Shown in pieces: positions 3,579-54,954 of a stretch of 64,000 bases of DNA; within the stretch, counting starts at the first letter, position 1; each line of letters opens with the position of its first letter. Location: the NCBI GenBank assembly GCA_053919585.1, contig CM132804.1; one strand, written 5' to 3'. Below the pieces are notes generated by a model. The model did no database searches, was not told the origin of the DNA, and worked only from the letters and a program-made list of their open reading frames with translations. The position numbers were made by a program, and so were the translations under genes. Origin of the DNA: Euprymna scolopes (Eukaryota).

Positions 3579-5979
3579 TCTGACAGATATTAATAATAAC
3601 ATTTGACAATGAAGCTTCTAAAAATAAAGCATTGTAAGCGTTGAGAACAATAAGATCCAAACAATCGTTAATAAGGCAGATAACGAGATGCAAAAAAAAA
3701 ATGCACACTTTAATAATGAACAAAAGATATTTACAAACATAATGTTTTTCTTTATCTAAAATCGATATATTTTATATTTACATTTTTTTACTCATCACCA
3801 TCTCATCACAATGTTTCTATCTTCTTAGGTAAAATTAAAATATTGTAAAACATATTTGAAAAAAAAATAAGATCGAGATTATGTAATTCTTCATAATCCT
3901 GACGAATGTGCATCACTTAAAAGCCAGTTCAGATCGATATTAAGAAAGACGCCATTTTGAAAACGAGTCTCATCTTTGTATTGAACTGCACTTAATGCTA
4001 AACAATTATATCAGATAGTTTGCGGATATGATTATATTTTATTTTTTTAGTAAGGTTACTTTTAATAAATTTATTCAGTAAACATAATCTTTATTAAAAA
4101 TGTCTGATATCTTACTGTGAAATAATTAGTGGAAACAAGTAGAGTCATGATGATAATTATTTTCTCTTAAGAATTATATTCGTTTCTTTTGTCGGTCATG
4201 TATTAAATGACCTTAAGAAATTGACACCCAAACAANNNNNNNNNNNNNNNNNNNNNNNNNNNNNNNNNNNNNNNNNNNNNNNNNNNNNNNNNNNNNNNNN
4301 NNNNNNNNNNNNNNNNNNNNNNNNNNNNNNNNNNNNNNNNNNNNNNNNNNNNNNNNNNNNNNNNNNNNNNNNNNNNNNNNNNNNNNNNNNNNNNNNNNNN
4401 NNNNNNNNNNNNNNNNNNNNNNNNNNNNNNNNNNNNNNNATGTATCATTTAGCCAGCCTATTTCTTTAGTAGTCTCCTGTGTCCTGAACTTGTTCCCATA
4501 AATCTGTTCATATACTAACTCGAAAGCTTGTCACTGCTACTTTTAACGTGACCATAACATCGGAGTTTCCTGTTCCGCACATATTAAACTATTAAGATTC
4601 CTATTTTTTTTCCACAAGTAACTTTCGTTTAGCACATCTTCAAAACTTGTGTGATGCAAATATGGTATCGTATCCACATAATTCCCCTACATGCAGCGCA
4701 TGTCTTAAGTTCTCAGCAAGGAAATAATATTATACCCGGGAGGTGTCGGCATATGAAATGGATTTTAAAATTTACTCCATTCTATTCGATTACGGGTATT
4801 GGCAATCTTTAGGGAGTCCTCACTCTGGGACGATATTCTGAATCGTGATGTACAACAAAGTAAATCAAGCGGAAAAATACAAGTTTGTATTTAAACGGAT
4901 TTAATGTACGAAGTAGAATCTTGTTGCAGAAAGCAGAAAAATATTATGCTCTTACAACATAATAATGCGTGCAAAAATTAGATATCAAATTATCTAAATA
5001 TTTTTACTATGAGGTATATTTTAAATTTTAGACTGTATTGCTCATGCTACAACTACCTTATTCTTATTTAAGCTTTTTTTGTTTGCTTGTTAATTCACGA
5101 TTTCATGATTAATAAATGTAACATCTTTTATATATTTAATATATACAATATTTTACACATTAAACTGAAAGGAACGTTATAACATATAATAATGTGTTCG
5201 AATATATTAATGATTTTAAAATGTTCTTGCTTTTTTTACATCAGTGTTGATAATTCATTTTATTCGGATTATTCCAATATTCTCCCCAGATATTCAGACG
5301 AATGAGCATCGCCTGGCTATCCTTGCCTAATACACGCTGCATAAAAACAATGCAGGATCCCCAAGACACCGGAGAGTCACAGAATTCATAATTCCCACTA
5401 CTCTCATTTTAAGTGACGTCTGTGCATCGTATCGACATGTGTAAGCTCCGATCTTTTTAGGCCAAACTCGAAATTTTGTTTTGCCGAACAAACGATTCTG
5501 CATAAATTTTCGAATGTATGTATTTTTTACCCGGTATGGCAGCATGTTTTCTTTTTTTTCTTCAGCCGTGACTGATTAGAAAGCTCAAGTAATTCGGAAT
5601 TGTATTTTTAGCACCGTCCGCGTTTTGGAATCTACGGCGAGTGTCTCTTAAAACTTTTTTTTTCCATGTGCACTGTCCGTTGGGCCGCAAGCAATGGCTA
5701 AGTGTACGACAGCCAGCTGTCCTCATAGAATAAACAAAGAGGGCATTGCGCAATCCCACACAGATTCCCGTGTTCGGCAAAAAGATTTAAGAAAAAGACA
5801 AAACTAACATAATAAAGGTTTGAACTTCCATGTGAGAATACTACTGATATGAGAACAGTCGTCCAACTTATAACAATATTCAACATCATCGAACCCCATT
5901 TGGCATAAATAACACATTCGCACGAAACGGGGTGTAACTACCGTGTTTAAACGTCTAATGTTTATATATATATATATGT

Positions 5980-6024
<45 letters not shown>

Positions 6025-6084
6025 AAATTCCACAGCCAAACAACGTCGCAGCCTACAAAAGCCATGACAATCAAGGAACCGGAA

Positions 6085-6129
6085 GTCCAAGACTCGAGTT
6101 TCGCCCTAGTTCGGGCTCATCAGTTAGAC
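6085..6129 (-). ncRNA. Type I hammerhead ribozyme, intact core
   Basis: Minus strand: GTCTAA-CTGATGA-GCCC(GAACTA)GGGC-GAAAC(TCGA)GTC-TTGGAC. Has the CUGAUGA and GAAA core, a 4-bp stem II, a minimal stem III with a palindromic loop, a GUC cleavage triplet and a 6-bp stem I. Confidence 0.88.
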
Positions 6130-6132
6130 AAA

Positions 6133-6204
6133 TCCGAACTCAGGATTCGAAACCCGAGCCTCTTGCATGCGAGGCAAGCACTCTACCAACTGAGCAAACG
6201 CCCC
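6133..6204 (-). ncRNA. tRNA-Ala(CGC)-derived head (pseudo-tRNA, Pol III A/B boxes)
   Basis: GGGGCGTTTGCTCAGTTGGTAGAGTG-CTTGC(CTCGCAT)GCAAG-AGGCTCGGGTTTCGAATCCTGAG. D, anticodon and T arms form, but the 3' acceptor strand does not pair with GGGGCGT. Confidence 0.8.
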
Positions 6205-6529
6205 GCACACAATAATTTCTATTAACCAACAAAGACCAAGCAAACCGTGCCGAAATCCGACTGTGAATTGAACCTACTTCGTCTCAACAAGGGACGCGGT
6301 CATCCAACCAGCTACATTCTGAAAATCCTATCATAAGTTGCTCGCTTGGTTAGTATTGCTGGATGGTATCGTCCTTTCGAGTTAAAACCCCTACTTGTGA
6401 GACATCGGCTTGGAGTTATTAGCTGGTTGGATGACCGCGTCCCTTGTTGAGACGGAGTAGGTTTATCTCACAGTCGGATTTCGGCGCGGTTTGCTTGATC
6501 TTTGTTGCTTAATAGAAATTCTTGTGTGC

Positions 6530-6649
6530 GGGGCGTTTGCTCAGTTGGTAGAGTGCTTGCCTCGTATGCAAGAGGCTCGGGTTTCGAATCCTGAGTTCGG
6601 ATGTGTCTAACGGATGAGCCCGAATGAGGTCGAAACTCGAGTCTTGGAC
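6530..6649 (+). ncRNA. Second copy of the tRNA-derived head (6530-6601) plus a degenerate hammerhead (6605-6649)
   Basis: Anticodon loop changed to CTCGTAT. Core reads CGGATGA instead of CTGATGA, and stem II (GCCC/GGTC) has a mismatch. Confidence 0.8.
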
Positions 6650-7146
6650 TTCCGGTTCGTTGATTGTCATGGCTCTTGTGGGCTGCGACGTTGTTTGGCT
6701 GCGGAATTTATTATATACAATCTCTCACATTCTGAAAATTATATATATATATATATATATGTTTATATGTGTATGTGCATGCNNNNNNNNNNNNNNNNNN
6801 NNNNNNNNNNNNNNNNNNNNNNNNNNNNNNNNNNNNNNNNNNNNNNNNNNNNNNNNNNNNNNNNNNNNNNNNNNNNNNNNNNNNNNNNNNNNNNNNNNNN
6901 NNNNNNNNNNNNNNNNNNNNNNNNNNNNNNNNNNNTTGAAAATAAAAATCCAGCAGAGTGCTCAATTAAAAGGAAAATCCGAAAAATAAGAGCGTATTTA
7001 TATTTTATATTTTGTGTACAGAAAGTTGTTAGATGAGATAAGTCATCGGTACCGTCGGTTTCAAACCCGATAATTAGGACCGTTTTACATATCCATATCA
7101 AGCTCTCCTCAGCCAGTACTCATCTCTTTCTGTACACAAAATACAA

Positions 7147-8454: not shown

Positions 8455-11400
8455 AACCTGGCTTGACGATTGCTTAAGACTTTGACTACGCAACGTACAA
8501 AACCCCACTAAGTCGAATCTGGCTTGACGAATGCTTAACAATTTGACTACGCAACGTACAAAACCCCGCTAACTCGCATCTGGCTTGACAAATGCTTAAC
8601 AATTTGACTACGCAACGTATAAATCCCCCACTTACTCGAACCTAGCTTGAGGAATGCTTAACAATTTGACTACGCAACGTACAAAACCCCACTTACTCGG
8701 ACCTGGCTTGAGGAATGCTTAACAATTTGACTACGCAACGTACAAAACCCCACTTACTCGGACCTGGCTTGAGGAATGCTTAACAATTTGACTACGCAAC
8801 GTACAAAACCCCACTTACTCGGACCTGGCTTGAGGAATGCTTAACAATTTGACTACGCAACGTATAAAAAACCCACTTACTCGGACCTAGCTTGACGAAT
8901 GCTTAACAATTTGACTACGCAACGTACAAACCCCCACTTACTCGAACCTAGCTTGAGGAATGCTAAGCAATTTGACTACGCAACGTACAAAACCCCACTT
9001 ACTCGGAGCTGGCTTGAGGAATGCTTAACAATTTGACTACGCAATGTATAAAAACCCCACTTACTCGGACCTAGCTTGACGAATTCTTAACAATTTGACT
9101 ACGCAATGTATAAAAACCCCATTAACTCGAACCTGGCTTGACGAATGCTTAACAATTTGACTACGCAACGTACAAAACCCGACTAACTTGAACATGGCTT
9201 GACGAATGCTTTACAGTTTGACTAAGCAAAATACAAAACCCCACTAACTCGAACCTGGCTTGAAGAATGCGTAACAATTTGACTACGCAACGTACAAAAC
9301 CCCACTAACTGTAACCTGGCTTAACAAATGCTTAACAATTTGACTACGCAACATACAAAACCCCACTAACTCGAATCTGGCTTGACGAATGCTTAACAAT
9401 TTGACTACGCAACGTACAAAACCCGACTAACTTGAACAGGGCTTGACGAATGCTTTACAGTTTGACTAAGCAAAATACAAAACCTTACTAACTCGAACCT
9501 GACTTGACGAATGTTTAACAATTTGACTATGCAACGTACAAAACCCCACTAACTCGAATCTGGCTTGACGAATGCTTAACAATTTTACTACGCAACGTAC
9601 AAAACCCCACTTACTCGGAGCTGGCTTGAGGAATGCTTAACAATTGTCTTACGCAATGTACAAAAACCCCACTTACTCGGACCTAGCTTGACGAATTCTT
9701 AACAATTTGACTACGCAATGTATAAAAACCCCATTAACTCGAACCTGGCTTGACGAATGCTTAACAATTTAACTACGCAACGTACAAAACCCGACTAACT
9801 TGAACATGGCTTGACGAATGCTTTACAGTTTGACTAAGCAAAATACAAAACCCCACTAACTCGAACCTGGCTTGAAGAATGCGTAACAATTTGACTACGC
9901 AACGTACAAAACCCCACTAACTGTAACCTGGCTTAACAAATGCTTAACAATTTGACTACGCAACGTACAAAACCCCAATAACTCGAATCTGGCTTGACGA
10001 ATGCTTAACAATTTGACTACGCAACGTACAAAACCCGACTAACTTGAACAGGGCTTGACGAATGCTTTACAGTTTGACTAAGCAAAATACAAAACCTTAC
10101 TAACTCGAACCTGACTTGACGAATGTTTAACAATTTGACTATGCAACGTACAAAACCCCACTAACTCGAATCTGGCTTGACGAATGCTTAACAATTTGAC
10201 TACGCAACGTACAAAACCCCACTTACTCGGAGCTGGCTTGAGGAATGCTTAACAATTTGACTACGCAATGTATAAAAACCCCACTTACTCGGACCTAGCT
10301 TGACGAATTCTTAACAATTTGACTACGCAATGTATAAAAACCCCATTAACTCGAACCTGGCTTGACGAATGCTTAACAATTTGACTACGCAACGTACAAA
10401 ACCCGACTAACTTGAACATGGCTTGACGAATGCTTTACAGTTTGACTAAGCAAAATACAAAACCCCACTTACTCGGAGCTGGCTTGAGGAATGCTTAACA
10501 ATTTGACTACGCAATGTATAAAAACCCCACTTACTCGGACCTAGCTTGACGAATTCTTAACAATTTGACTACGCAATGTATAAAAACCCCATTAACTCGA
10601 ACCTGGCTTGACGAATGCTTAACAATTTGACTACGCAACGTACAAAACCCGACTAACTTGAACATGGCTTGACGAATGCTTTACAGTTTGACTAAGCAAA
10701 ATACAAAACCCCACTAACTCGAACCTGGCTTGAAGAATGCGTAACAATTTGACTACGCAACGTACAAAACCCCACTAACTGTAACCTGGCTTAACAAATG
10801 CTTAACAATTTGACTACGCAACATACAAAACCCCACTAACTCGAATCTGGCTTGACGAATGCTTAACAATTTGACTACGCAACGTACAAAACCCGACTAA
10901 CTTGAACAGGGCTTGACGAATGCTTTACAGTTTGACTAAGCAAAATACAAAACCTTACTAACTCGAACCTGACTTGACGAATGTTTAACAATTTGACTAT
11001 GCAACGTACAAAACCCCACTAACTCGAATCTGGCTTGACGAATGCTTAACAATTTGACTACGCAACGTACAAAACCCCGCTTACTCGGAGCTGGCTTGAG
11101 GAATGCTTAACAATTTGACTACGCAATGTATAAAAACCCCACTTACTCGGACCTAGCTTGACGAATTCTTAACAATTTGACTACGCAATGTATAAAAACC
11201 CCATTAACTCGAACCTGGCTTGACGAATGCTTAACAATTTGACTACGCAACGTACAAAACCCGACTAACTTGAACATGGCTTGACGAATGCTTTACAGTT
11301 TGACTAAGCAAAATACAAAACCTTACTAACTCGAACCTGACTTGACGAATGTTTAACAATTTGACTATGCAACGTACAAAACCCCACTAACTCGAATCTG

Positions 11401-11640
11401 GCTTGACGAATGCTTAACAATTTGACTACGCAACGTACAAAACCCCACTAACTCGAACCTGGCTTGAAGAATGCGTAACAATTTGACTACGCAACGTACA
11501 AAACCCCACTAACTGTAACCTGGCTTAACAAATGCTTAACAATTTGACTACGCAACATACAAAACCCCACTAACTCGAATCTGGCTTGACGAATGCTTAA
11601 CAATTTGACTACGCAACGTACAAACTGGTAACTAACTCGA
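8455..11640. repeat. 61-bp tandem satellite, ~52 copies, with a 10-monomer (612-bp) higher-order repeat
   Basis: Consensus cctggcttgacgaatgcttaacaatttgactacgcaacgtacaaaaccccactaactcgaa. The variant ggagctggcttgagg recurs at 9005, 9617, 10229, 10475 and 11087. Confidence 0.97.
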
Positions 11641-20685: not shown

Positions 20686-20827
20686 CTATTCTATATGTAT
20701 ATATATATGCATATTATCTATGTATATATATATATATATATATATATAAATATTATACATAAATATATGTATATCAATATTATATATATGTACACACGCA
20801 CACACACACATGTATATATATAGGCAT

Positions 20828-20958
20828 CCATATGCGGTACTGTTTCGCTGTTTTTCAGCTCATCAGTACGGCTATACAAGGAACTACCTCAAGCCAGGAT
20901 CGAAATCCGACCGCTCAAACGAGAATGGGAGCTTCTAACAGTTGCGCTATACGGCTGC
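20828..20958 (-). ncRNA. Second family of tRNA-like head plus hammerhead (partly degenerate)
   Basis: Minus strand: A-box-like TAGCGCAACTGTTAG, B-box-like GATTTCGATCC, then CCGTA-CTGATGA-GCTG(AAAAA)CAGC-GAAAC-AGTACCGCA-TATGG. Core and stems I/II are intact; stem III and the cleavage triplet are mutated. Confidence 0.65.
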
Positions 20959-25349: not shown

Positions 25350-28300
25350 GGCAAGAGGCATTCGTGTAGTACCTGCGGCATAATGGTGTACATAACAAAC
25401 GTATGGCCTCAAAAATCAACAAAACAGCAGGTCCAACGGCGAACCCCAAAGATACGTTTGCGGTTCACTTGGACACTAAAATCAGGGCTCCTATAACCAC
25501 AAAATCGTCCCCGAGAGCATTCCCCAGAAAACAAGCATAAACAACATAGACTAATTTTAGAGCAGCAACAAAAAGAGGGGCTACAAAAAATTTCGGGAAA
25601 GGACCAGTGGTTGGGAATTACTTGAATTTAAAACTTTACAGAAACAACTAAGATCAAAGACTAGTACCCAGTCTCCATCAAAAAGCCCAGACCCACGTAC
25701 TCCCCAAAAATCATCACCAGAAAAAAAATCATCATAAAATCATCATAAAAATGTCATCAGCAAATATCATGACTCCCCCTTATCACAGGACCAATAAAAT
25801 GGCAACAACAATTTAAACTAATACTATTCAATCCATCACACAAGATACCAAAATTAACTCCCAAACCACAACGCCTCTTCCGCCGAAAACCTATTTCCAG
25901 CACCTCCTACAAAGTCCCAGCCACCATCCCCATTCCTTTACAGGACTCTAAAAACAAACTCCTCCCAATTCCCCAGTAAAAAACTAATTTTAACAACCTG
26001 CACTCCCCCTCAGCCAATGACTCAGACAAATATAGAATACACTACATCCTAACCGGCATCGTCTTTGCTACATCATTGCGAACGTTATAACCAGAGTAAA
26101 AAGCCATCCGCCGAGAGATCTCAGAAAAGTATTTGATTTTTCCACAGTAAAAGTCCTCTGTGCCCACGACACCCTTAATTTCTCGAACGCCAACAGAATA
26201 TTAATAGTCATCAGAACAAGAGATGGAACGAAAGAAATCTAGCGAATGCTGGAGAAAGCTAATTAAAACTTTTATTTTTCACCCTCTCTATTTATCATCA
26301 ACGACCTTACGTTATAAAGTTTTAAAAAATCTTCTTTTGAGAGGGTTCCTGTTCAAATTCATCCCTCATTATATAGGGCTGCTTAACTAACATTTCCTTT
26401 GGCGGTATGCCCCATGGCGGCCATATAAACACTGCCATGACTGAAAATTTACAGGGAACGTGTGATTGACATCCTTATCCCTGACATGATCGTCTCGGAT
26501 ACACAACGCAAAGTGATCATAATGCCACTCAAATTAGCAAGCTTGATTGTTTGAGGGTTGACGGTTACCTCACAAAAACTTCGAGTTGCACGCGACCATC
26601 AACACCTTGGTTGGGATATTTGTTGGCTACAGGAGACTCTCTTTATTCCATCAGATTATTACGGTGTGTTGGATAGGGACTTTCATCTTTACTTAGTATA
26701 TTCTGATATCTATTCAGAGGGAGTTTTCTGGCTAGTTAATCAAAATTTGAAAGCACCATGTGACCCATGATCCTGCTTTTTAGATGTGCGTTTTTGATGT
26801 CACCGTAAGACTTATTGGGGTTTCTCCACATAATAGCCACAATGAGAATCCCCTTTCTTTCGACGGATCGAATATTTCATAAATATATCTAGACGGTTTA
26901 TTTTAGCGGGAGACTGGAACGCGGTGCTGGATCCTGATTAAGATCGCGGGAGTAACGTTTGAAGGGTGACCAATTGAAATCGGGATGTTAACTAATTTCG
27001 GGATTGTATCGATATGTTCATAAGTTCCGGAATTTAAAACCCCGGAAAGAAAGCATATACTTTGACGAGTAGTCACGGCTTCGATTCGATGTAACTTTCG
27101 ATTTATATGGATCAGTTCTAACAAGAGTCGACATAGGTTTTTTAGATTGCCCAAATTTTCAGAATATTTTTTATTCGGACGAGAAACTCACCCAGGTTCA
27201 TTTATACTTAGATTGCGTTAAACCTATGATGGCTTTAGAGTGGAAGTTCAATACGTCATTGTTCGACTTGAAGTACTTCCGGGATGAGCTTTTACTAACC
27301 ATACAACGGAAACCATAATTTGGAATACGTGGTGGGTTGATTCGAAAAAAAAAATTAGGGTATTCGTTGCTGATTATAGTCACCGACTTAATCTTAGCTC
27401 TCGGGTAGTGAAAACGACACTAGAGACTAGATTAGATCTGGCAGTAGAAGACGGAGACTGCAGTAGTTTTACTAGAATAAGGGCATAACTGGACTTGATG
27501 GATTACAATGGCGATCAGGGAATTTTAGTTAGGGCTGGTTGAAGTGAGGGCGAAACGAGAAAACAAATATTGCCGCTTCGTTGCGCGCGGAGAAGCGTTG
27601 GCGGTGAACCAATCGACATATCGTCAGTGTCACATTGCTGGACGAACGCACCTTGACCACAAACGATGGGAATTCGATCCTATTTTCAGGGTCTCTTCAC
27701 TAGAACGTCCACTCTGACAATGGTTCAGTTCCCCATATATTAAGTCCAGTTTTCTCGCCTCAAAGCGATAGAACCGGCTAGGTACGAAAGTTGCAAAAAG
27801 GAAGAAGTCTTGGAGGCTCTGAAACATGTCCAGCTGGAGAGAAATCCTGGTGTCGATGGGCTGTATTACGAAGTATATATGAGATTGTCGCCTTTTTATA
27901 ATCCGCATGGTCGTAATATTTTACTCCTGGTTTAAGAACGGGTGCATTCTTCAGTGTTTTACCAAAGGAATCATTAAATTGCTACACAAGGATAAAAATG
28001 GAGGGGATAGTTTACGTAATGTTCGTCTCTAAACGAAGTCTAATACAGATTTAAAGATTTTAGCCAAGATCTGTGCAAACCGTCTGAAACATTTCTTGCA
28101 TCGCCTTATAAATCCTCAAAAGACTTGTGCAGTTTAGGGCCGGACGATTCATAACTAATTTCTACGTAATTCCCTTGAGTATAGAAATAGTCGACATTGA
28201 AAACTCGCTGATAAATTTAGATACGTCCAAAGCGTTCGATAGGGTCGATCATCGTTACCTGGAGGCTGTTCTGTTCTCATCTGAATTTGGGTCACAATAT

Positions 28301-29720
28301 CGCTTCTGGATTCGCATTCTTTATGCAATACCCGGTGCGCTGGTAGAAGTGAATGGTGTGAGGCCGAAGCCTTTCAATTTGTTCAGATCAATTAAGGGTT
28401 TTCCGCTCTCACCGATTCTTTATGTGCTTGCATTTCGGCCTTTCCTTTGCAGGATTAGAGTTAATCCGGTCTTCGAGGTATTACTCTGCCAGTTGCTTAC
28501 AGGACAAGTGATTACTCTGCTCCCGAGTACTCGCCGACGAGGTAATTGTGCTTGTAAAAAGCAGTGCTTAGACTAAAGTCGTCAACATGAAAGTAAGACT
28601 GTAAAACATGCAACAGGGATCAAAAGCAACTGCGATTACTCCTTGGTTTGCGCATTGCAGCTTGAGGGGAGTACCTCTTCAGGGTTCATTTGACTGGATG
28701 GATCGGCTTTGGAAGATATTCGGCGTCTGATGCGGTCCGCAAATCCAGTTATAGGAAATTGGTCGGAAGTACTGGAAGCTGTTCACGCCATCACACGTTT
28801 ATGGGCCCTGAGAAATCTAACTTTAAAGGGTCGAGCGGAGGTTTGCAATTCGCACATTTATCCTCGTATCCTCTACCGTCTAACAGTACTTTCACTCCCG
28901 GAAACATCACTATTTCAACTTTTTAGTGATATTCTACATTTTCTTGTTGCACAGAAAGAAAACAATGGTTAGCAGGGATATCTGTTAACTGCATCCGTCG
29001 GAAGACGGTCTGATCATGCTAAGCATTGATATCTAGAGGTATACGCTTCTCATAATTTACCTAAACGGAATGTATACACTATGTGACCAGAACAGTGATT
29101 TTTGGACAAAAGACACTAAAAAAATTTTCCAGTTTTGAAAAGTGTACACTCGCCAACAGTAGAGACACACACGTTACCCCAACTGAGTGTTCCTTTATCG
29201 CGAATGTCGAGAGTCCTTGAAGCTCCTCTGACGGGTGAAAGTAAGCCTCTCTGACACCTGCGTGTTTCTTGTAGGGCGCTATATATGTTATAGTGCAGGA
29301 ATATCTTCAAGATGATAGGACGTAGAGTCTCGGTTTTATGAGTGGGGGGGCGACTCTTAGTATGGCCTTTGACGCCTGTGATGACGTGCCTTGATAATTA
29401 TGAGGTTTCACGCACCTTGCACATAATAAGAGATGTTCGCAGCAAACATGGTGAAGACGGTAAGTTGTCTGCGATCGGAGGACGAGATCGAAGCTATCAA
29501 GTGCGCTATCGTACGTCCGTGTCGGCACAGGCCAAGAGAGAAGTGGAATCACGACATAAGCAAGTTTACGGAGATAAAAACGTCACTGCTCTCCAGCTTG
29601 TTTTTATTTTCAAGCACCGCTTGGAAATTTGTATTAGGCTGGAGAAGGTGGAACTCACTCAGGCAAATTTCAACGAATGTAGGATTCCAGTTAAGACCAA
29701 TTGCCGCTGCTAGCGAGAAA
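25350..29720 (+). mobile_element. Tx1/L1-clade non-LTR retrotransposon, long but heavily pseudogenised (5' boundary uncertain)
   Basis: Motifs in order: APE endonuclease (MPLKLASL ~26522, DICWLQET ~26615, ILAGDWNAVLDP ~26900), WKFNTSL (27241), PGVDGLYYEVY (~27845), RT (LINLDTSKAFDRVDH, FPLSPILYVL; 28127-28576) and LWALRNLTLKGRAEVCN (28800). Confidence 0.88.
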
Positions 29721-30087
29721 TCAATGGCCCCCGGCTGTTGCAATAATGCAAATTCATTTGCAAATGATATCAGAGGAGGTGGAGAGTACTGGGAAACTGG
29801 GAAGTTTTGTTGTCACCCAGATTACAGGAAACTCTACAGGTTGTTTTCTCGGAGATATCCTTTTATGACCTGTGTTAAAGCTCCTTGTGGGGCAATTAAA
29901 ATGATCATACTAATAAAGATAATTATCACTGTTTTTACTCCTGTTCACCCATTACAAAGCATATCGCCAGTTGCACGTAAGGGGTTACTATTTGGGGTCA
30001 TGTCTAGGAAACATTAACAATTTTTTTGTTACATTTAAATTTCTGAATGTACATTGTACAGCCAGGGAAGCAAGCAGGAGGAAGGGG

Positions 30088-32814: not shown

Positions 32815-33847
32815 GGCGGGCGGCATGTAAAATGGTCAACCTCTTTCGACCCATCTGTTAGGAAATTCCTGATTTAGAAACTGTCTAACACGCTTAGCAA
32901 GGAGCTCCATCTTGTTGAAACACTGTATCATCTTTCAAGTTTAATTGTTCAAGTTGCGGAATAAAGTAATTCTGCAACATATCTAAGTAGCTGCCATTGA
33001 TAATAACACGATCTTCAAAAAAATATGGCCCTATGATTCGATTTATTCCCAAAGCACACCACACATTAACTTTAAGAGAGTCCCTATCATGTTCAACAGG
33101 TTCATTTGGGGTTTCAGTTCCCCAAACTCGGCAATTATGCCTGTTGACCTTGCCACTAATGTGAAATGTTGCTTCATCAGACAACAGTAAATTACTCACA
33201 AATGCATCATCATTGCACAGTTTTTCATTGAACTGGTGACAGAAAGTTAGCCGTGCATAATAATCCTCTTCTAACAACTGTTGATGTAATTGAATTTTGT
33301 AAGCTTTCATGTGAAGTTTTGCCCGCAGAATCTTATGCACAGTAGACTTTGGCAGCCCGAGCTCCAATAATGCCCGTCTTACAGACTTTCTTGGACTTGC
33401 AGTAAAGGATTCTCCTATGGAAGCAACACTTTCGTCACTGACACATGCCCTTCCAGAACGTTGTTTATCATAGACAGAGACCGTCTCTTTAAATTTTTTC
33501 ATGCATTTAACAATAGTGTTCCTATGAGGCGCTTTTTTATTGTATTCAATTCTAAACTGCCTTTGTACAGCAATAGTAGATTTCAATTCAGCCAACCAAA
33601 AGGACACAGTTTACTTTTTCCTCAATTGAAGCCATGGGATCAAATTGATTCTGAAAAACAAAAGAAAATATGTTTTACTGATTTTTTACTTATCGGAAAA
33701 TTGTTACGAGTTTTGTGGTGAAAAAGTATTCAATAACAAGACTTACAACTAGATACATGAAACTGTATAACATTTTTTTACAGATTATTTCTTTCGCAAA
33801 TATAAATAAAATTTAATTTTTTAAAAGTGCAGACGAACTTTATGGAC

Positions 33848-38540: not shown

Positions 38541-38674
38541 NNNNNNNNNNNNNNNNNNNNNNNNNNNNNNNNNNNNNNNNNNNNNNNNNNNNNNNNNNNN
38601 NNNNNNNNNNNNNNNNNNNNNNNNNNNNNNNNNNNNNNNNNNNNNNNNNNNNNNNNNNNNNNNNNNNNNNCGAT

Positions 38675-38728
38675 TAAGCTACACTGAATATTCTGTGTTT
38701 CATCCAACTATAGGATTCGTCAGGCTTA
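38675..38728 (-). ncRNA. Type I hammerhead ribozyme (left arm of palindrome)
   Basis: TAAGC-CTGACGA-ATCC(TATAGTT)GGAT-GAAAC-ACAGAATATTCAGT-GTA-GCTTA. Confidence 0.82.
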
Positions 38729-38744
38729 TGCGCGAATTCGCACA

Positions 38745-38798
38745 TAAGCCTGACGAATCCTATAGTTGGATGAAACGCAGAATATTCAGTGTAGCTTA
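38745..38798 (+). ncRNA. Type I hammerhead ribozyme (right arm of palindrome)
   Basis: TAAGC-CTGACGA-ATCC(TATAGTT)GGAT-GAAAC-GCAGAATATTCAGT-GTA-GCTTA. Full core, GUA triplet (cut predicted after 38793) and a near-palindromic stem III. Confidence 0.85.
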
Positions 38799-38928
38799 AT
38801 CGCCATATATATTTTATAAATTACTAACTAGCCCTACCTACGTATTGAGCACTTTTGAAGTAAATACTTAAAGTTTACGCATAAATCAATACTTTCGTAT
38901 ATCAAATTTGTGTGAATAAATGAAGTAG

Positions 38929-38989
<61 letters not shown>

Positions 38990-40049
38990 GCCCACAAAGT
39001 CTGGCCACATAATCTACATGATGCTTCCACAAAGTCTGGCTGTGATATAGATGGCTCGAAATAACGTTTAAAATGCAAACGTCAAGTATCATGAATCAGT
39101 TGTGCTCTAAACAAAAAACATCTATTTCGAACGTGCTACTTTCATATCAAATAACCTACTTTTGGGTTTATACGACTGGCTTTACTGTCTGTGCAGTGAA
39201 AATGGCGTGAATTGACGTTTTAAATGAAAAGCTAAAGATTTAATTATGGTCTAAAAAGGAACAGTCATTTCGAAGGCGCCTCTCTCATATAAAATAACCA
39301 ACCGTTGATTCTATATGTCTGGACTTTCACATTGTGTGGTAATAACACTTCTTAAATGCTGTTCTGATGTTAAGCTGTAAAATAATTTAACATTTTGTCG
39401 AATTTGCGTCTCTCACATTTCATCGGATTTTTTTTTCAATTAATGACTATGTTAAACTGTTTTTGACTCCTAATGGGGGTAGTGATTTAATTGCTGCCCA
39501 CATAAGCAATATTTGACACAAGGCCTAGAAAGTGGGGACTAAAGCAAGCTCTCCTAAATGCGGCTAGGAGCTGTTTCTTTTCCACATTCGGTGCAAAATC
39601 TTCTGTCTGTTTCGAGCGGGTATTGGCTTTTTTTATTGAAGGGCCACAGGGTGGGTAGATCGATCCACCCAACCAATCAGCGATACGTTTCCTGGAGAAT
39701 TCCAGACCCGAATTGCGTGTGAGCACTATGACCAGAATTTTGTAATCTGGGACCAAAATGAAATCATCTTCACACGACCTGAAGAGGTCAACCCCTGTCA
39801 ATTGTTTTGCTTAGAACCCAGCGCGTCTGGGCCGGGGTTTCCCGGGCGAACCAGTACAAATCTCGTTAAACAATGAAATATCAAGTAAAAGCATATCACT
39901 TTTTATACCCGCCGTTGTCCGGGATTCAATTTACATTTAACGGACAATTCTTAGCATATTGGCCCGGTCTTCCTCAGGTCCCAGGGGTCGCAACGTCTCC
40001 AAGGGGTGCAATCGCTCCCTCAAGACGATCATGTTACGCAAACAATAAT

Positions 40050-40922
40050 CTTGCTCCAGTGAAAAACGGGTGGTAAGGCCTGGGAAGGTGGAACTCCTGG
40101 TTATACCCAGGCGGTGTGACTCAGTCCGACAGGTGCTGGGCCGGTTTTCAGTCTCTCACCTGTCGGGCTGAGTGTCAAGAACGGATCTTTGACGTGTACT
40201 ATAAACTTGCCTTCCTGAAGCCGAAGCCGCTAGGGGACACATCTTCACCACGAATAATGGGGGTAGATAATTGTTTTCTGTTCACCACAGAAAAATGTAG
40301 CAAAAGGCCAGAAGGTGAGAGTAGGCAAGCACCCCTAAAGGAGGGACATTCTTGCCTCAACAAAAATTGCCGGGGCACCTCCGTCGGTATTCCCCGATAG
40401 GGGCGCCTCAGGCGACAAGCAATAAACTTGCCCATCGAAAAAACAGGATAGCAATGCCTAGGAGGGTGGGCATCCTAGGTGATAACCAAGCGGTGTACCT
40501 TAGTCCTGCAGGTGCTGGTCCGGTTCCCGTCCCCTCACCTGTCGGGCTTAGTGTCAAGTAACGAATCCTTGACGAGTACTTCTACTATGTCTCCCTACAT
40601 CCGAAGCCGCTAGGAGACCTTCCCCATCATGAGTAATTGGGGTAGTTATTTATTTGCCGCCCACCTCGGCAAAATGTGGCACAAGGCCGGAAAGTGGAGA
40701 TCAAGCAGTCTCCCCGAAAGGAGGGCACTCCTGCAATTGTAAAAATTGCTTGAGTAACCCCGTCGGCATTCCCCGGTAGGGGCGCCTCAGGCAGTAAGCA
40801 ATGAACTTACTCCACCGGAAAGCCCAGTGGCAAGGCCTGGGAGTGTGGACCTCCTAGGTATTACCCAGGCGGCGTACCTCAGTCCAACAGGTGCTGGGCC
40901 GATTCCCGGCCCCTCACCTGTT
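40050..40922 (+). repeat. ~380-bp GC-rich diverged tandem repeat (about 2.3 copies) rich in stem-loops
   Basis: Equivalent positions at ~40072, ~40451 and ~40829. Strand assigned from G-U wobble bias in the stems. Confidence 0.8.
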
Positions 40923-53637: not shown

Positions 53638-54954
53638 GGTGACCCAAAAAATCTAATTAGACCCCGTTTCTTAGTGTTTTTTTCCGAATGAAATGAAACT
53701 TTGGTCATAACTAGTTTATTATATTCAAAACATCACACCAAAACACTAGGCTCTTTGGCCTTTTTTCTCCGTTCTGCAGAATATGTTCTAGATGGCCTCC
53801 ATTTAGCTCCGTACATTTCTTGAGGCGCAGCACGTAGTTGTCCATGACGTTCTTACAGCCCGAATTGGTAGTGGCTTTCATCTCCTCCGTGATGGCTTCC
53901 TTGAGTTCCGTGATGGTGCTGGGTTTCCCTGCGTAGACTCTGTCATTAAGATAGCCCCAAAGAAAAACACCTGGGGGGGGGCTTAGGTCCGGGCTATGGG
54001 GTGCCAACTCAACGAAGTTCTCTTTCAGCCAATCTCGGGACAGGTTTGATGTGTGAGAACTCGCTCCGTCCTTCTAGATCCAGAACTTGCCCATGAGCTC
54101 CGGGTAGATGGTCTGGAGTTCACTCTTGAAGGTTTTGAGGACCTACACATAGCGCTCCTTGGTGACTGTCACTGCCGCACCAGATTTTTCGATGAAGATT
54201 AGTCCGATGATGATTCTGGCCGAGATTGTAGCCCATACCGTGCACTTAGGAGAGTGTAGGGGATTGGTGGCTACTTCAGTGGGACTGCAGGACCCCCAGA
54301 AGATATTTGTCTTGGAGCTCGCCTTTCCTTCAAGATGTAAGTGGGCTTCATCTGAGGTCTAAAGGAGGTTCATGGAAACTTGGTGTCTCCTCGATCTTCT
54401 CGAGCATCTTGACTGCCATAGCCCTCATCGGCATCTTGTCTGAGGCTGTAAGGGTCTGCAGCGTCTGTATTCTGTATGGGTAAGCCCTGATATCGTTCAC
54501 CAGCACTCTCCTGCAAGTGTCACGGGACATACCGTGGAGCTGACTTTGCTTACGCACAGAGCGTTTCGGACTCTGCTGGAGAGACTCTCTCACTCGTTCG
54601 ACCAGCTCGGCTGTTCGTTTCTTGGGATGTCGTGAGTGGTTTGGACAGTTCTCTCTGGCAGCGTTAAGTTTCTCCACGGTCCACCATACTTCTCGAAGTG
54701 GTCCACCCAGTTCTGAATTCTGCTTTTGGATGGAGCCTTTTCACATTCGAACTGACGCATGAAACTGTCATGGATTTTCTTAGACGAGCCTGTCTTGTAG
54801 TAAAATTAAACACAGTTTATTCTTTGTCCCAACTTCCACTGGGGGCTTGGTGTACTCACGGTCTTTTATTCTGCCATGTCCTGTAAAAGAAGGGCAATCG
54901 GTGAATAAATAATGGAGATAGCACATAAAGTGTACACTGGGCCCGTTTTTTTGC

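Follow-up and report, generated by a model that had tools for sequence, protein, structure and literature searches.

Repeats that join tRNA-related sequence to a hammerhead ribozyme have a precedent in Schistosoma's Sm-alpha and Sj-alpha elements (PMC2770079). In the tandem units of Sm-alpha, a Pol III promoter directly precedes a type I hammerhead, so that cleavage leaves the promoter at the monomer's 3' end (PMC6765202). Non-LTR retrozymes of other animals (coral, mussel, axolotl) consist of short units in tandem that are non-coding and contain a type I hammerhead (PMC7229834, PMC7761336), and they have been proposed to be non-autonomous derivatives of Penelope-like elements (PLEs; PMC7229834, PMC7761336, bioRxiv 10.64898/2026.07.22.740005). 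In its accessible text, a 2020 review leaves open what moves and transcribes animal retrozymes, which seem to be devoid of promoters or motifs that would reveal a partner (PMC7761336). A 2026 preprint links retrozymes to PLEs by pLTR homology and co-occurrence, and a term search for "tRNA", "promoter" and "tail" found 0 occurrences in it (bioRxiv 10.64898/2026.07.22.740005). The accessible part of the giant squid genome paper gives only a count, i.e., 235 hammerheads (PMC6962438).

Described marks of PLE insertions are partial tandems, a truncated copy lying next to them in inverted orientation, a tail of 30-40 bp at one of the ends, and targets in microsatellites (PMC8557442, PMC3846280). In vitro, the tail lies between two internal sites downstream of the hammerhead at which reverse transcriptase (RT) starts, and cutting as well as extension takes place on both DNA strands; ribozyme mutants of the one PLE tested in this way still inserted (PMC11167929). 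Cleavage as dimers has been described for hammerhead motifs with a weak helix III (PMC4209133).

Here, we describe a repeat from a 64,000-nt stretch of the Euprymna scolopes genome (contig CM132804.1 of assembly GCA_053919585.1; "the window") that had drawn attention as a fusion of a tRNA-Ala-derived sequence and a hammerhead. Taken together, its anatomy and insertion ends make it likely that this element is a PLE-mobilised, tRNA-boxed non-LTR retrozyme that is non-autonomous and carries a putative internal Pol III promoter.

Anatomy and copy number of a 413-bp repeat

The feature represents a single copy of a non-coding 413-bp repeat in which a tRNA-Ala-derived segment is joined to a type I hammerhead motif, and it sits in one arm of a head-to-head pair flanked by (TA)n with the following parts:

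5963-6020 (no strand): left-flank (TA)n target (tandem-repeat content)
6017-6314 (minus): inverted, 5'-truncated arm of 298 nt that holds the copy under study, with a "short" 3' end in (TA)n (alignment to the direct arm)
6085-6129 (minus): type I hammerhead whose core is intact, with an 8-nt palindrome over stem III; cut predicted between 6091 and 6090 (Rfam and folding)
6133-6137 (minus): 5' strand of the stem I extension, pairing with 6083-6079 (sequence)
6140-6204 (minus): tRNA-Ala-derived segment lacking the 3' acceptor strand, +1 at 6204 (Rfam and tRNA gene alignment)
6143-6152 (minus): B-box-like sequence with T replacing G53 (70 copies and tRNA gene alignment)
6148-6162 (minus): predicted blocking strand, comprising the anticodon 3' side, variable loop and 5' T-stem (folding prediction)
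6186-6197 (minus): A-box-like sequence in which tRNA position 9 is T, compared to A in the host gene (tRNA gene alignment)
6314-6745 (plus): direct arm with a full 413-bp unit (6314-6726) and the start of the next, "tail" 3' end (unit and end mapping)
6530-6594 (plus): tRNA-Ala-derived segment of the direct arm, ca. 216 nt inside the unit (Rfam and copies)
6605-6649 (plus): direct-arm hammerhead, mutated in core U4 and in stem II (6612, 6630; sequence)
6718-6745 (plus): Penelope-type "tail" of 28 nt between two fixed 3' end positions (end mapping)
6740-6760 (no strand): right-flank (TA)n target (sequence)

The inverted arm aligns to 6420-6717 of the direct arm without gaps and with 19 differences. 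This second copy and the Penelope-type insertion anatomy had been missed by the original prediction. A 13-nt direct repeat (6315-6327 / 6727-6739) was considered as a target-site duplication and rejected because it is the unit's own sequence at the tandem junction.

In the 5.9-Gb genome, a 24-mer across the predicted cut has 4,029 exact matches (reversed control: 0), i.e., there are at least 4,029 ribozyme copies, and scaling this count by the median divergence of 3.4% among 70 full units (chosen on the unit junction, one per insertion) gives roughly 9,000 units genome-wide. The unit junction itself has 1,013 exact matches, so many copies are longer than one unit. The short, non-coding units form partial tandems with arrays of up to ca. 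4 units that are dispersed over all large contigs, and the repeat sequence is also present in mollusc-labelled RNA runs. Neither an ORF with RT plus GIY-YIG domains nor any long ORF is present in the 413-bp unit. The earlier description as a retrozyme-like retroelement that is dispersed and non-autonomous and has boxes derived from a tRNA holds. Elsewhere in the window, we noted a 61-bp tandem satellite (8455-11624; ca. 52 copies), a GC-rich 379-bp tandem repeat without an Rfam match (40039-40921; 2.3 copies, 76% matches), and, by eye from translations, fragments resembling Tc1/mariner transposase and LINE reverse transcriptase (32897-33610, 53714-54740 on the minus strand, 28112-30014 on the plus strand).

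The tRNA-derived segment is recognized by Rfam at 6195-6140 of the minus strand (31.9 bits). This match is limited to model positions 10-63, so the acceptor stem is absent, and ARAGORN calls no tRNA in the 64-kb window. Alignment to genomic tRNA-Ala(AGC) genes gives 53-55 identical columns of 77-81, or ca. 70% identity (one gene locus and eight further ARAGORN-called loci, the latter at 54-55/77). A tandem array of such genes with a 251-bp period lies at C2:86.55-86.59 Mb. The segment starts from 6204, and its T arm runs directly into the stem I extension. Both the replacement of the 3' acceptor strand and the UCGGA/UCCGG extension of stem I that had been proposed can be read in the sequence. 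Of the proposed label "pseudo-tRNA-Ala(CGC)", the tRNA-Ala origin stands, but the anticodon CGC (24/70 copies) marks one subfamily, and TGC is commoner (44/70). Judged against the A- and B-box consensus, each box has one deviating base (T at tRNA positions 9 and 53). The T in the B box is a G53-to-T substitution that is also common in older copies, which ruled out our reading of it as a recent insertion.

Runs of four Ts are absent from 3/3 monomers tested compared to ca. 3.5 expected from shuffles (P 0.004-0.015; the sense strand is 34% T) and from 53/70 copies, and the minus copy in the window has gained one ca. 30 nt past the cut. The absence of such runs is what Pol III read-through would need, although this evidence is indirect, and we consider it slightly more likely than not that the repeat uses Pol III. 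The segment is not a Pol III head as had been suggested, since it lies ca. 216 nt inside the unit. Its upstream flank is kept in 2,550 copies, and only 7 copies (of 24 matches without the flank) start at the tRNA +1. The repeat therefore has the tRNA-related A/B-box segment of a tRNA-derived SINE, but full-length copies do not have the tRNA as their 5' end.

Insertion ends and the mobilising enzyme

While the 5' ends of copies are scattered, their 3' ends fall at two fixed positions (equivalents of ca. 6712-6717 and 6739-6745) that are 28 nt apart and lie ca. 70 and ca. 100 nt past the predicted cut. Most of them run into (TA)n, with TA following 85/98 short ends and 44/58 tail ends. Among 91 single-orientation insertions (from 149 loci representing 136 insertions), 57 have short, 20 tail, and 14 other 3' ends. 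The 90 clean head-to-head pairs, drawn from 365 loci that had been picked by several patterns but never on end type, comprise 68 short+tail, 1 short+short, and 0 tail+tail combinations as well as 21 pairs with unclassed end(s). One short and one tail end are thus combined in 68/69 classifiable pairs (p below 1e-18 against 0.5), and the window's own pair obeys this rule.

The two-position tail, partial tandems, inverted 5'-truncated copy, and microsatellite target of the repeat are the traits of PLE-mobilised insertions. As an internal control, the same genome contains a young, intact RT element of 835 amino acids (Pfam RVT_1) in 2.7-kb tandem arrays, and 4/4 of its head-to-head arrays have one short and one long end, all in TA. 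We are highly confident on these grounds that a PLE is the mobilising enzyme. The 835-aa element shares no sequence similarity with the repeat (the local alignment scores 25, and shuffles average 23). Among the top matches of one Poseidon-like RT query, which uncovered an older family besides the intact 835-aa one, neither was repeat-like, and no partner with similarity in the pLTR or 5' ORF was found. A pattern for hammerheads with longer stem II, used to look for a partner, yielded 24 matches whose text revealed nearly all of them to be indel variants of the 413-bp family itself.

The 835-aa PLE family is very young, and many contigs carry its 2.72-kb arrays, which are tandem and inverted (L290-L300, e.g., C4:137021000-137036000); the canonical hammerhead pattern has no match in its pLTR. 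At 38671-38802, the window contains head-to-head hammerhead cores with longer stem II, probably a truncated pair of PLE pLTRs, which are of one family with the cores found next to Poseidon-like RT fragments in L280, L282, and L289.

The end mapping also bears on two other modes of spread. Read literally, the original prediction implied that a LINE moves a tRNA-headed SINE of the conventional type and that the hammerhead trims the SINE at its 3' end. The position of the tRNA segment directly 5' of the ribozyme and the dispersal of copies would fit this model, but it is already contradicted by copies that rarely start at the tRNA +1, by 3' ends 70-100 nt beyond the cut, by copies longer than one unit, and by inverted pairs that follow the two-end rule, so that we give it hardly any weight. 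Spread as satellite-like DNA through recombination, slippage, or microsatellite-linked repair, i.e., with no RNA step, is just as improbable. Short tandem arrays do exist, and some copies travel in larger duplicated repeats (12/30 loci stem from one such event), but fixed 3' and scattered 5' ends, the dispersal over all large contigs, and an end anatomy identical to that of an RT-encoding element all speak against it.

Ribozyme, cut site and template

On the minus strand, Rfam Hammerhead_1 matches 6129-6085 over the full model with 50.9 bits (gathering cut-off 34; E 2.7e-10). The CUGAUGA/GAAA/GUC core is intact as had been predicted, and stem III consists only of an A-U and a C-G pair closed by a palindromic UCGA loop. 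In the direct arm, the ribozyme is broken at 6612 and 6630 and falls below the Rfam cut-off (31.7 bits). The proposal of a dimer-type ribozyme with a tiny stem III gained support from folding, which gives -10.7 kcal/mol for the 8-nt palindrome as a duplex but +2.9 as a hairpin, and this stability as a duplex only points to cleavage as a dimer.

Across the family, the core is intact in 47/70 copies and the commonest letter in every core column is that of the intact core, while the sole shared hammerhead variant lies at the free N7 position. Shared variants occur at 0/44 hammerhead sites other than N7 and at 19/326 other sites (p 0.15). Substitutions are rarer in the core (18/754) than in the spacer (489/13,003; p 0.058), but the difference vanishes without subfamily sites in the spacer (315/12,102; p 0.81). 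The conservation of the core relative to its flanks that the original prediction had set as a test therefore agrees in direction but not in significance. Such a weak signal is what young, dead-on-arrival copies would be expected to show. Overall, we consider it likely that the ribozyme cleaves.

The further proposal that self-cleavage defines the RNA end was not supported, as far as insertions show, because the fixed 3' ends lie downstream of the cut. Nor was an apparent accumulation of 5' ends at the cut accepted (99 matches). Of the first 30, 12 derive from one amplified event, 6 represent internal or doubtful cases, and the other 12 are independent, with a microhomology junction common to 4 of the latter. 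At a control position with 46 matches, 16/30 are true ends, and scaling leaves ca. 41 independent ends at the cut against ca. 25 at the control (p 0.064). The cut is thus not a main boundary, which means that cDNA usually passes through the site and requires RNA that is either uncleaved or re-ligated.

Three independent short copies (L210, L211, L212) start exactly at the predicted cut and are preceded by a run of 9-12 Ts, which possibly reflects untemplated addition when RT runs off a cleaved RNA end, or else slippage. One 74-nt copy that begins at the cut site has been amplified ca. 40 times inside a larger repeat of ca. 1.7 kb or more (L181, L183, L185, L188, L190, L194, L195, L197, L199, L202, L204, L206).

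Units within young insertions are identical or nearly so, with 0/413 mismatches in three comparisons at one locus (L091) and 0/412 in three as well as 2/403 in three at another (L133). Mismatch amounts to 3.5% within tandems, 4.4% between inverted arms, and 6.6% between insertions. This low divergence within insertions fits repeated copying of one circle and would equally fit a uniform linear multimer or master array, and we lean only slightly toward a circular template. When folded as one circular monomer, the unit reaches -141 kcal/mol compared to -114.6 +/- 4.9 for 60 shuffles (z -5.3).

Four of 24 listed RNA runs, of the polyA/oligo-dT type, which is poor for circles and in which a circle and a tandem transcript look alike, were mapped onto one natural unit; other runs with a small share of matching words carry no weight here. 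The repeat appears in RNA from both strands, and 85-87% of raw reads continue into unrelated sequence. No sign of cleavage or circles and no pile of read starts at the cut was seen in these runs. The largest read pile matches L211, a single 74-nt genomic copy inside a host transcript. The reads show passive inclusion of the repeat in host transcripts and are neutral on circles. Reads with loose poly-T/TA ends at the cut were dismissed as proof of cleavage, since L211 has the same flank and private variants; single-cell reads with such ends probably come from oligo-dT priming on a genomic A run. Reads that seemed to jump back by 412 nt are an effect of the permuted reference.

Secondary structure folding, which ignores tertiary contacts and Mg2+, predicts a 15-bp helix of 6162-6148 with 6103-6089 that would cover the catalytic GAAA and the cut site (median pair probability 0.96 for the 13 inner pairs). 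This blocked fold beats the constrained active fold in 68/70 copies, by ca. 13 kcal/mol at the medians. In 150 shuffles with the target kept, a helix covering the target arose once and never with 15 bp, while a 15-bp helix anywhere arose in 12/150. Covariation, which is not usable because the family is too young, lends no support to the helix, and no comparable helix was seen in the other families folded. The preference for the blocked fold could alternatively mean that the ribozyme rarely fires, and we propose only tentatively that this helix may form in vivo.

Cassette recurrence, a proposed cycle and known systems

A genome-wide search with a pattern in which a hammerhead core has a B box 14-28 nt upstream returned 980 matches (reversed control: 0). 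Among the 100 matches listed, ca. 13 represent the 413-bp family, most belong to a second, unrelated family, and further variants are present. This second family (L150-L179) has a unit of ca. 296-307 bp, A and B boxes that are canonical, another palindromic loop III of 6 nt, and TA-flanked ends at apparently two positions ca. 125 nt apart. It also has a T5 run ca. 15 nt past the predicted cut, which is at odds with simple Pol III read-through. More distant variants occur beside it (L152, L153, L177, L169/174/178/179). Rfam Hammerhead_1 detected none of the other families at 15 of their loci, and its only two matches there were copies of the 413-bp family. Within the window, 20780-20930 of the minus strand holds a hammerhead core below Rfam detection with a B-box-like sequence ca. 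35 nt upstream and beside a TA tract; a similar core lies at L299:5040-5130 on the plus strand.

It is conceivable, though in our view improbable, that the repeat is merely a PLE-mobilised passenger in which ribozyme and tRNA are relics and uncleaved read-through RNA is copied with no circle. Such a passenger would explain the silence of the reads on cleavage, the weak core conservation, the favoured blocked fold, and the imperfect promoter boxes. Precedents for it are that insertion in vitro did not need hammerhead cleavage (PMC11167929) and that 8/9 Xenopus retrozyme dimers stayed uncleaved in vitro (bioRxiv 10.64898/2026.07.22.740005). Against it stand the intact core as the commonest letter in every column with N7 as the sole shared variant, the avoidance of T4 runs, the recurrence of the B-box and hammerhead layout in sequence-unrelated families, and the persistence of arrays of 4 or more units, which a linear cycle should shorten.

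For the PLE-mobilised retrozyme that we favour instead, a cycle can be proposed. Pol III would likely start at the internal A and B boxes and continue through the following units because these lack T4 terminators. Neighbouring hammerheads would then cut as a dimer via the 8-nt stem III palindrome to release a 413-nt monomer that a host ligase may close into a circle. Within this circle, pairing of the tRNA T-arm strand across the catalytic core is predicted, which would stop re-cutting. The endonuclease/RT of a PLE would nick both (TA)n strands and start cDNA inside the RNA ca. 70 or ca. 100 nt past the cut, using one site per strand. Copying through the ribozyme and round the unit could thereby generate partial tandems and head-to-head short/tail pairs.

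A joint reading goes further and is, as a whole, rather unlikely to be correct in every part. Cassettes of tRNA boxes and a hammerhead might constitute a recurrent class of PLE-dependent, circle-replicating SINEs, and in the 413-bp family the tRNA module would serve as both Pol III promoter and switch. Its T-arm hairpin would form first and permit a co-transcriptional cut, after which it would refold into the 15-bp helix that covers the core and shields the circle; this helix would be completed by the same G53-to-T substitution that makes the B box imperfect. Both PLE start sites would be used per insertion, one per DNA strand.

In the openly accessible papers searched, neither the 413-bp family nor a tRNA-hammerhead repeat with PLE tails was found described, and no named cephalopod or mollusc SINE family corresponding to it came up; the family may already have been catalogued. 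What our analysis adds is evidence, at the level of insertions, that a tRNA-hammerhead retrozyme integrates in the manner of PLEs, together with the paired-end rule, the finding that the cassette recurs, and a model of the blocking helix that can be tested. The rule that each inverted pair combines a short with a tail end is sharp and constrains how PLEs use their two RT start sites, and this young, high-copy family offers a promoter, ribozyme, dimer palindrome, and blocking helix that are separately mutable.

The tRNA-hammerhead architecture itself is not new, and the suggested comparison with Sm-alpha is apt since both have tRNA-related sequence followed by a hammerhead in tandem units. The repeat differs in its tRNA-Ala source, 413-bp unit, and mollusc host, and its PLE tail, paired-end rule, and (TA)n targeting are absent from the accessible descriptions of Sm-alpha; conversely, cleavage has been shown experimentally for Sm-alpha but is only predicted for the repeat. 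It falls within the structural definition of non-LTR retrozymes (PMC7229834) and shares with them a weak palindromic helix III, a GC content below 50%, and a highly paired predicted circle (PMC7229834, PMC7761336). Unlike the reviewed retrozymes, it has tRNA-derived boxes and a PLE insertion signature, though its circle is only a prediction, and the pLTR homology reported for the retrozymes of the 2026 preprint was not found for it among the PLE loci sampled. With Penelope/Poseidon-type PLEs (PAc, PMC11167929) and non-autonomous Chlamys derivatives such as MRC1 (PMC8557442), the repeat has in common a tail, a hammerhead that lies upstream of two internal RT start sites, partial tandems, an inverted 5'-truncated copy, and AT-rich targets. 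In contrast to PLEs, it has no RT/EN ORF, its hammerhead is canonical rather than minimal, and it carries a tRNA-derived module.
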